From Somniosus microcephalus (lineage: Eukaryota): a stretch of 64,000 nucleotides of DNA. Positions within the stretch are counted from its first letter, which is position 1. Every line of letters begins with the position of its first letter. The notes beneath the pieces are model-generated. The model was given only the letters and a program-made list of their open reading frames with translations. It made no database searches and had not been told where the DNA came from. Positions 6,394 through 49,386 of this stretch are shown in pieces. The stretch is taken from NCBI GenBank assembly GCA_052327205.1, contig CM126223.1, positions 35,030,001 to 35,094,000 on the forward strand, in the 5' to 3' direction. Both the position numbers and the translations under genes were made by a program.

Positions 6394-7295
6394 TGCTTGC
6401 TGACGCTGACGCTGACCCTAACCCAGTCACATGTTTCTGCAGCATGTGAGCTGTAGGAGATTAAATAGCTTTCGTTCCTGCTCTGTTACTGTATGACTGT
6501 GTCTCTTCTTTGCCTTTTACCAGCAAAAAAGATGGAATGTTGTGAAGAAAATAAGGAAGCGCGCAGTTATCTGTCCGCAGCACAAAATAATCGTGGCCGC
6601 AACTTAACAGTTTAGACCCTTCCACCCGCCTATAACTACATGCCTCACACAAACACACGCATTGACCGAGGCCTTTGGCTGCACCAGCTCTACGCAATGA
6701 CCCCCACACATACAGCTCCTGCCTGCATGTTGTCAGGGCCTGCAATGTGTCCAGATAACTGCTTCGGTTTAACGTCTCATCCGAAAGACGATCTCGGCCC
6801 AGATTTTGCCACTAGGGTTATTAGCAGCTCCTTGATGAACAGGGAGCGGGGAGAATTTGATGGTCACTGTACTCGTGCTGCCTGCATTTTCCATGCATTT
6901 TATTATTCATTAGTTCCCAAGTTAATTAACTCCAATGGTAGCAGTTCCATTTTAAAGTGGTAACCAGCAGAGTGCCTCGGGGTTCAGTAATGGGACCTTT
7001 GCCTTTCACAGTATTTATACGAGCATTTGCTAGATATCGAAGTGTGAATAACAGCAGTATGTGTGTGTGCGAAGAGCTAAAGATAACATCAATGAAGGTT
7101 AGTCAGCAGCTGAGAACATTTCAGTGATTGTGTGTTAATTGATTGGCACAATAAGTCTCCCTGTTTCTAATTAATCTGTGTAACTGGGCCATTTTTAAAT
7201 GTACTGCTTCTTCAACTGGTGTTTGTGCTGAAGCCACAAACAGTACATCAGAAGAACGAGCTAAGAGTCCTTTTGTTGTGGAACTGGTCTCTGCA

Positions 7296-28342: not shown

Positions 28343-28416
28343 CTGGGAGAACGACCACAAATGAGGAGCTGGAAGACATGCTGGAGAGTGGAAATCCCGC
28401 TATCTTCACATCTGGG
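28343..28416 (+). CDS. STX1A: Syntaxin-1A coding exon (equivalent to human exon 7, 74 nt): (T)[24 protein letters not shown]
   Basis: Acceptor ttattccag| and donor |gtgagt, phase 1 to 0. The linker peptide carries the syntaxin LE motif; GNPAIF.SG favours STX1A over STX1B or STX2. Confidence 0.95.
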
Positions 28417-31269: not shown

Positions 31270-31407
31270 ATCATAATGGACTCGAACATTACGAAGCAGG
31301 CACTGAATGAGATTGAGACACGACACCATGAGATCATCAAGCTGGAGAACTGTATCCGTGAGCTGCACGATATGTTCATGGACATGGCAATGCTGGTGGA
31401 AAGCCAG
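31270..31407 (+). CDS. STX1A: Syntaxin-1A exon (equivalent to human exon 8, 138 nt): [46 protein letters not shown]
   Basis: Acceptor ttttcccccatag| and donor |gtaaga, phase 0/0. Encodes the N-terminal half of the Qa-SNARE motif, ending on the zero-layer Gln. Confidence 0.97.
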
Positions 31408-34477: not shown

Positions 34478-34588
34478 GGTGATGTGGTCAATAGTATCGA
34501 GCGGAATGTCGTCAATGCAGCAGATTATGTCGGGCAAGCGAAGGAAAACACCAAAAAAGCAGCTAATTTTCAGGGTACCAGCAGACGG
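34478..34588 (+). CDS. STX1A: Alternative exon 9a (111 nt), syntaxin-2-like SNARE C-half: GDVVNSIERNVVNAADYVGQAKENTKKAANFQGTSRR
   Basis: Strong acceptor ttttccttctgtttcag| and consensus donor |gtaagt. Same length and phase as 9b, 16/37 residues identical to it, SNARE layer residues kept. Confidence 0.88.
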
Positions 34589-34612
34589 GTAAGTGGCCGG
34601 AGAGAACGGCAC

Positions 34613-34618
34613 CCTAAT
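34613..34618 (+). promoter_or_regulatory. Putative branch point (cctaAt, A34617) for exon 9b
   Basis: Best yTnAy match in the 77-nt intron, followed by a pyrimidine-rich tract up to AG 34664-34665. Confidence 0.55.
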
Positions 34619-34665
34619 CAGATCTGTTATTTTCATGTGTCTTTGCTCTTTTCCTCACTGCCCAG

Positions 34666-34776
34666 GGAGAGATGATAGACAGGATCGAATACAACGTTGA
34701 GCACTCAGTTGACTACGTAGAGAGGGCAGTGTCCGACACGAAAAAGGCGGTTAAGTACCAGAGTAAAGCGCGACGG
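34666..34776 (+). CDS. STX1A: Canonical exon 9b (111 nt): [37 protein letters not shown]
   Basis: Acceptor cactgcccag| and donor |gtgagt; essentially the vertebrate syntaxin-1 sequence. Confidence 0.97.
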
Positions 34777-34908
34777 GTGAGTAGTGCGAGTGTCTCCACC
34801 CCAGCATGTGGCGTGGGCGACCCCATTTGTGAATTGTGCTTCCCCAATTCCATCACAAGCGAACACGGGAAAAAATGTTTCTCGAACCTTGCGTTCACGA
34901 TTGTCCCG

Positions 34909-35570
34909 CGGACTGTATTAGTCACTAGTCATCAGGCAGACTGTATTGGTCACTAGTCATCCCATGGACTGTATTAGTCACTAGTCATCCCACGGACTGC
35001 ATTAATCACTAGCCATCCCATGGACTGTATTAGTCACTCGTCATCAGGCGGACTGTATTAGTCACTAGTCATCCCGCGGACTATTAGTCACTCGTCATCC
35101 CGCGGACTGTATTAGTCACTCGTCATCCCGCGGACTGTATTAGTCGCTCGTCATCCCGCGGACTGTATTAGTCGCTAGTCATGCCGTGGACTGTATTAGT
35201 CACTCGTCATCCCGCGGACTGTATTAGTTGCTCGTCATCCCGCGGACTGTATTAGTCGCTCGTCATCCCGCAGACTGTATTAGTCGCTAGTCATGCCGCG
35301 GACTGTATTAGTCACTCGTCATCCCGCGGACTGTATTAGTCACTCGTCATCCCACGGACTGTATTAGTCGCTAGTCATGCCGCGGACTGTATTAGTCACT
35401 AGTCTTCAGGCGGACTATTAGTCACTAGTCATCCCGCGGACTGTATTGGCCACCAGTCATCCCGCGGACTGTATTGGCCACTAGTCATCCCGCGGACTGT
35501 ATTGGCCACTAGTCATCCCGCGGACTGTATTGGCCACTAGTCATCCTGCGGACTGTATTGGCCACTAGTC
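34909..35570. repeat. CpG-rich minisatellite, 28-bp unit ggactgtattagtcactcgtcatcccgc
   Basis: About 23 tandem copies with variant blocks. Confidence 0.95.
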
Positions 35571-42348: not shown

Positions 42349-42426
42349 AAAATGATCTTTATAGGAATTTGCATTGCAGTAGTACTGTTGGTTATCATCA
42401 TTGTTCTGGCTGTGTCTCTCAGTTAA
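42349..42426 (+). CDS. STX1A: Alternative last coding exon 10a, transmembrane anchor KMIFIGICIAVVLLVIIIVLAVSLS*
   Basis: Strong acceptor tttcttcccttcccacag|, phase 0. Lys plus ~22 hydrophobic residues then TAA makes a tail anchor. Resembles the recalled STX2 tail KLMFIIICVIVLLVILGIILATTLS. Confidence 0.85.
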   Translation, partial: KMIFIGICIAVVLLVIIIVLAVSLS

Positions 42427-49305: not shown

Positions 49306-49386
49306 AAGAAGATTATGATCATTATATGCTGTGTGGTGCTGGGGGTCGTCATCGCCTCCACAGTTGGGGGAGTATTTGGATTTTGA
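49306..49386 (+). CDS. STX1A: Canonical last coding exon 10b: KKIMIIICCVVLGVVIASTVGGVFGF*
   Basis: Acceptor tgcag|, with branch point actaAc (A49256) and a pyrimidine tract upstream. Encodes the syntaxin-1 TMD with the CC pair; IASTVGG favours STX1A. Confidence 0.96.
   Translation, partial: KKIMIIICCVVLGVVIASTVGGVFGF

Follow-up and report, generated by a model that had tools for sequence, protein, structure and literature searches.

A 77-nucleotide intron as a probable steric lock between duplicate SNARE-motif exons of syntaxin-1A in the shark Somniosus microcephalus

Exon layout of the syntaxin-1A gene

The window, the whole 64,000-nucleotide stretch of Somniosus microcephalus contig CM126223.1 that was analyzed, covers the 3' part of the syntaxin-1A (STX1A) gene, and the nearest proteins are named shark STX1A. 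All features described here lie on the forward strand, and the exon numbering is taken from an earlier note on this DNA. A tblastn search with the shark syntaxin-1A protein P0001 locates exon 7, a coding exon with splice sites in place, at 28343..28416 and exon 8, which encodes the SNARE motif's N-terminal half, at 31270..31407. The donor of exon 8 is common to two downstream exons, 9a (34478..34588) and 9b (34666..34776). Exon 9b is identical to syntaxin-1A in the PDB at 36 of 37 residues, while the assignment of exon 9a is based on a match to PDB syntaxin-1A (E value of 1e-4), 85% identity to a Carcharodon RefSeq protein, and its position in the tree described below. The two exons are each 111 nt long, open, and in phase 0, and they agree at 16 of 37 amino acids and 62 of 111 nucleotides; judged from these comparisons, they are duplicates, each encoding a version of the SNARE motif's second half in syntaxin-1A. 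The equal length and phase bear out the earlier note's point that including both exons would stay in frame and escape nonsense-mediated decay (NMD). Exon 9a has small or hydrophobic residues at all eight SNARE layer positions under the usual layer numbering. Among the last eight residues, 9a has two basic ones and 9b has four.

The interior of exon 9a contains an acceptor-like stretch (34562-34580) with a branch-like motif, a T run, and a CAG at 34570-34573. A weak GT is found at 34575, 14 nt upstream of the real 9a donor; its use as a donor would widen the gap between donor and branch site but would shift the frame.

Two alternative last exons follow. TM-A (42349..42426) encodes a transmembrane anchor similar to those of STX2 and STX3A, and TM-B (49306..49386) encodes the canonical syntaxin-1 anchor, with 92% identity to the last exon of the STX1B paralog. 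Proteins of Narcine, Latimeria, and Acipenser, and also a carp model, have TM-A spliced to 9a. The gene thus has the STX3A/3B-type layout, with an a-type and a b-type exon 9 and two transmembrane last exons. The 3' UTR of TM-A at position 42506 matches an alternative C-terminal piece of the zebra shark models P0003 and P0005, which suggests a second internal acceptor in this last exon. A 28-nt unit is repeated 24 times in tandem at 34904-35570, starting 130 nt past the 9b donor, and a repeat array likewise follows directly on exon 9 of the STX1B paralog (L002).

The intron between exons 9a and 9b and its predicted branch sites

Exons 9a and 9b are separated by a 77-nt GT-AG intron (34589..34665), which begins with GTAAGT and ends with CCCAG. 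Its position and length agree with the earlier note, which had described a tiny, repeat-free intron amid multi-kilobase neighbors: the other introns nearby measure about 2.85, 3.07, 7.6, and 6.9 kb, those of 3.07 and 7.6 kb flanking the exon pair, and Tandem Repeats Finder reports nothing within 34589-34665.

Branch motifs were scored with a human yUnAy matrix, and the sites given here are predictions from it. The earlier note had named a single best branch adenine at 34617, arguing that its closeness to the 9a donor blocks splicing. This adenine does lie at +29 of the intron, with 48 nt to the 3' end, in a candidate site at 34612..34618 (matrix score of 3.68, U2-pairing score of 3.5), but it does not stand as the sole best one. 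A second candidate site at 34630..34636 has a similar score (3.34, with a U2-pairing score of 3.0), and its adenine at 34635 (+47) lies at the canonical distance, 30 nt from the intron 3' end. The top score (3.89) belongs to a branch-like motif at 34652..34658, whose adenine at 34657 (+69) lies 8 nt before the 3' end. Since most human branch sites are reported 19 to 35 nt from the AG and the shortest distance is about 8 nt (PMC5378181), the +47 site is at least as likely to be used as the +29 site, and the +69 motif is marginal. The latter is probably too close to the end but could be a leak route for 9a-to-9b splicing.

The adenines of the intron run from +3 to +47 and then resume at +69 and +76, leaving a pyrimidine-rich tract without adenine at 34636..34656 (+48 to +68). 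In HeLa extract, a spacing of 46 nt between donor and branch site abolished splicing and one of 56 nt slowed it, and the structural minimum has been estimated at about 52 nt (PMC6692369). As there is no adenine from +48 to +68, all usable branch adenines would be at or below the 46-nt spacing that abolishes splicing in vitro. The claim that the geometry falls under the published limit of about 50 nt therefore holds, whereas the block does not follow from the +29 site alone; from the positions of the adenines, it likely results from the absence of later ones. The predicted sites at +29 and +47, less than about 50 nt from the donor with the +69 motif alone beyond them, and the tandem homologous exons of equal length and phase are both features of the steric class of mutually exclusive exons.

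For comparison, we collected introns from six sarcomeric myosin genes of the same genome, analyzing 18 of 20 fetched stretches. Paralog comparison predicted 192 junctions, of which we kept the 125 whose flanking peptides matched a junction list compiled by eye from the paralogs. None of the 125 kept controls is as short as the 77-nt intron, the shortest measuring 78 nt; the 67 dropped junctions include all nine predicted gaps of 40 to 67 nt, which resembled false splits or frames of retroelements. A best motif close to the donor was rejected as standalone evidence, for the top motif is at or before +47 in 21 of the 67 controls of up to 120 nt, so the +29 argument is weak when taken by itself. 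The supply of later adenines separates the intron more clearly: at least five adenines located at or beyond +50 and at least 12 nt from the end occur in every one of these 67 short controls and none in the shark STX1A intron, in a comparison with six related genes whose introns have an adenine fraction of 0.33 against 0.19 here. The interval from -28 to -13 is without adenine in 1 of 125 controls, and each of the remaining five acceptors of the STX1A gene has an adenine there. When the shark intron is shuffled with its composition kept, the stretch between +50 and the position 13 nt before the end is free of adenine in 3% of 5,000 shuffles. One ordinary 78-nt control, a myosin intron of the same genome, has +50 as its best site, which makes +47 borderline.

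RNA structure was rejected as a cause, the 141-nt region having a z score of 0.26 and 115 of 200 shuffles folding equally well. A long AG exclusion zone of the OGDH type is also absent from the shark intron, where it measures 42 nt, a length reached by 45 of the 125 controls.

From the exon pair, the intron, the positions of its adenines, the pair of alternative last exons, and the occurrence of this exon pair in the STX3 paralog as well, all observed here, we propose, with a probability of roughly two in three, that the 77-nt intron acts as a steric lock, in which U1 and U2 cannot assemble together and the message takes 9a or 9b but rarely both. The splice from exon 8 to 9b would use the branch adenine at +47, at +29, or both, either serving well over a long range, and the splice from 9a to 9b would be blocked with these sites no more than 46 nt from the 9a donor. 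If both exons were recognized, 34589-34665 would be retained. Read-through from 9a into the intron would end at a stop codon at 34673, leaving 101 nt to the 9b donor, and under the 50-nt rule for NMD, a retained message spliced onward would thus be a likely target. The choice between 9a and 9b would be set by separate tissue factors, the lock merely barring double inclusion. Exon 9b with TM-B would give the neuronal syntaxin-1A, and 9a with TM-A would give an STX2/STX3A-like form for general secretion; the exon swap likely preserves an ancient switch between nerve and general secretion. The intron offers a clean and very small test case for the limit on donor-to-branch distance.

Joining of 9a and 9b in other species

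Protein models were drawn from the best 120 of 727 and the best 120 of 2,046 matches. Among the matches listed, none of the eight shark and ray RefSeq proteins with 9a (six species) joins it to 9b: four read into the intron, stopping after 3 or 6 residues, two continue to TM-A, and two have other ends. In the coelacanth, 0 of 3 RefSeq 9a proteins join 9b. A GenBank shark gene prediction (P0009) has an altered 9a end joined to 9b. RefSeq STX1A models containing both exons are found in six ray-finned species (sterlet, three gobies, and two Carassius), and such models are usually based on transcript alignments; an STX3 model with both exons exists as well, in the stx3b gene of a chub. The mutual exclusion that the earlier note had proposed is consistent with the listed shark, ray, and coelacanth RefSeq models, but the lock is not universal because ray-finned double-inclusion models exist. 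The eel and mormyrid RefSeq STX1A models P0058, P0142, and P0153 have a chimeric exon with a 9a start and a 9b end, which is either a modeling artifact at a shared stretch or a gene conversion.

Scanning metagenomic DNA with a pattern for 9b yielded 66 loci, many of them redundant, spliced, or short. A second exon copy is located inside the fetched flank in nine of these (2 of the teleost stx1a type and 7 non-vertebrate, judging by peptides) and in none of the other 57. The teleost introns are 220 and 238 nt long, and a Hucho model reads through a much longer 9a-9b intron; conservation of the intron length, which the earlier note had put forward as a check, is ruled out by these lengths. The shark and teleost introns align too weakly for homologous bases to be called. 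The teleost introns have branch-like motifs near the donor (+32 and +36 in one, +34, +38, and +48 in the other), followed by pyrimidine tracts in which AG is absent over 213 and 206 nt, whereas no control zone exceeds 113 nt. These two orthologs thereby have the long AG exclusion zone of the OGDH type, at lengths within chance, 5 to 27% of composition shuffles reaching them. Both also have a strong branch-like motif 10 nt from the end, which matches the QKI consensus. The permitted zone of the teleost introns includes 14 to 15 adenines against none in the shark, and the pattern agrees with a conserved but leaky layout in which the branch site lies near the donor.

The ray-finned models speak for a different explanation, in which the intron splices slowly, repressors of the PTB or QKI type acting on the pyrimidine tract in certain tissues give the exclusivity, and geometry only biases the outcome. 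Constitutive introns of 78 to 83 nt occur in this genome, the best branch motif between the two STX3 exons is at +97, and a branch-like motif 8 to 10 nt from the AG recurs in the shark and both teleosts, all of which would suit regulated splicing. The leak in teleosts need not hold in the shark, though, because of the difference in permitted-zone adenines, and the listed shark and ray RefSeq models include no double one among eight. We regard control by repressors as unlikely, while giving it more weight than any other alternative to the steric lock.

It is considerably less probable that 9a is mostly a terminal or retained-intron exon producing a soluble, anchorless syntaxin, for which exclusivity would be beside the point. 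The four shark and ray 9a proteins that end a few residues inside the intron agree with such a role, but the stop varies between species (3, 6, or 28 residues past 9a), 9a has a consensus donor (GTAAGT), no AATAAA or ATTAAA is present before 36048, and models of ray, coelacanth, sturgeon, and carp splice 9a to TM-A. Least credible of all, and very improbable, is a reading of 9a as an unused exon in decay, with the short intron left over neutrally from the duplication: in the tree comparison 9a evolves faster than 9b and has a variable C-terminal end in teleosts, and all 18 listed amniote STX1A entries have 9b only, which hints at a loss of 9a in amniotes, yet sharks, a ray, the coelacanth, sturgeon, bowfin, and teleosts all retain the open frame, the consensus splice sites, and the layer residues.

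Origin of the exon pair and comparison with known systems

The STX3 gene of the same genome has both types of exon 9, separated by an intron of 160 or 166 nt, and two anchors; by the human matrix, its best branch motif at +97 would not block splicing. Within the 10 to 20 kb examined, STX1B has 9b and TM-B only, and STX2 has only an exon of the a-type and an anchor resembling TM-A. The STX3 9a/9b region is present in two near-identical inverted copies about 47 kb apart (G000:C36:6323815-6324202 on the minus strand and 6371309-6371690 on the plus strand; L003, L004, L006, and L007), representing either a recent duplication or an assembly artifact. The two STX3 last exons located within 10 kb (L016:5436-5516 and 6809-6883) both look TM-A-like, and an STX3B-type anchor was not found in that range.

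A tree of 45 exon peptides over 37 columns separates the vertebrate a-type and b-type exons by one branch (91/87), which is present in 100% of 200 bootstrap trees with the bootstrap not fully settled. Exon 9a of the window groups with STX2 exons (96/90, a starred group). The simplest reading, inferred from these groupings, is that the exon pair predates the split of STX1A, STX1B, STX2, and STX3; the STX2 and STX3 duplications have been dated to Bilateria (PMC8373072). All 18 non-vertebrate exons compared score closer to the b-type, and for a common origin of vertebrate 9a and the non-vertebrate duplicates the 37 columns give open forks.

In the seven non-vertebrate loci with two copies of this exon, about five independent cases since some have common exon peptides, the spacers measure 16, 27, 44, 58, 66, 67, and 83 nt. 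Ordinary introns in the genes with the 16- and 27-nt spacers measure about 45 to 51 nt or more (roughly, from alignment coordinates), so these two spacers (L131 and L114) are likely unspliceable, while those of 44 to 83 nt may be spliceable. Locus L159 has an intron-free frame of 266 codons upstream with the 67-nt spacer kept, as would be the case in a retained-intron transcript. Two or three alternative transmembrane last exons are present in the non-vertebrate syntaxin genes at L131:1557-1700 and L114:1973-2770. A second exon copy is also found in insect, mite, and oyster gene predictions (P0161, P0165, P0191, P0017, and P0032), and in the insect predictions it is located downstream of the canonical exon.

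We tentatively read animal syntaxin-1, at slightly less than even odds, as an old two-mode gene with a recurrent, sterically locked swap of SNARE halves, of which fish STX1A keeps both forms and from which vertebrate STX1B and STX2 arose, each by fixing one form. The recurrence refers to the 16- and 27-nt non-vertebrate spacers, the 77-nt shark intron, and the near-donor branch sites of teleosts. If this is true, the forms of fish STX1A would be a neuronal and an STX2-like one. The data suggest that fish syntaxin-1A, usually deemed purely neuronal, still has an additional SNARE half and anchor of the STX2 type and that an older splice switch was divided among vertebrate STX1A, STX1B, STX2, and STX3. 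We consider this evolutionary context the more interesting part, compared with the splice lock itself.

The 9a and 9b isoforms are already annotated in RefSeq. A literature search over titles and abstracts, excluding subscription papers and bioRxiv supplements, found no paper on the STX1A 9a/9b pair or its intron; the steric mechanism is textbook knowledge, and its occurrence in STX1A seems undescribed. By prediction, 57 of 629 human clusters of mutually exclusive exons have been assigned to steric exclusion (bioRxiv 10.1101/133215). STX3 is present in human cluster tables (PMC5740500), and a search of the human catalogue for STX1A gave 0 hits; the supplement of the OGDH study likewise names no STX gene.

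The closest gene-level parallel is STX3, whose A and B forms differ in exons 9 and 10 (PMC11476516) and which has this pair of 37-codon exons in identical order together with two transmembrane last exons. The intervening intron of human STX3 measures 119 nt by supplement coordinates (PMC8373072). In contrast to STX3 with its +97 motif, the shark STX1A intron is shorter and has no adenine in the permitted zone.

In Caenorhabditis elegans, five intervening introns that are too short for splicing have been described, in egl-15, let-2, bet-2, gly-5, and gly-6 (PMC4165533), whose main text does not name unc-64 or syntaxin. There, exons with lengths divisible by three are exclusive because the intron between them is shorter than splicing allows and is retained while the exons stay unjoined, which fits the 16- and 27-nt spacers of L131 and L114, whereas the shark intron lies at the short limit of ordinary lengths and not far below it. 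The shark intron without a permitted adenine, the leaky long teleost version, and the ultra-short non-vertebrate versions form a natural series.

Mechanistically, the shark pair resembles exons 2 and 3 of alpha-tropomyosin and the alpha-actinin exons, which are cited as steric mutually exclusive exons (PMC7969005 and PMC6692369), and OGDH exons 4a and 4b, in having duplicate exons, a size-restricted intron, a branch site less than about 50 nt from the donor, and an AG-free pyrimidine tract. The branch sites of OGDH, at 25 to 41 nt from the donor, are mapped (PMC7969005), those of shark STX1A being predicted only, and the teleost STX1A introns look nearest to the OGDH layout. Compared with OGDH and tropomyosin, the shark intron is so short that an ordinary branch adenine at about -30 already crowds the donor, and a distant branch point is not needed.
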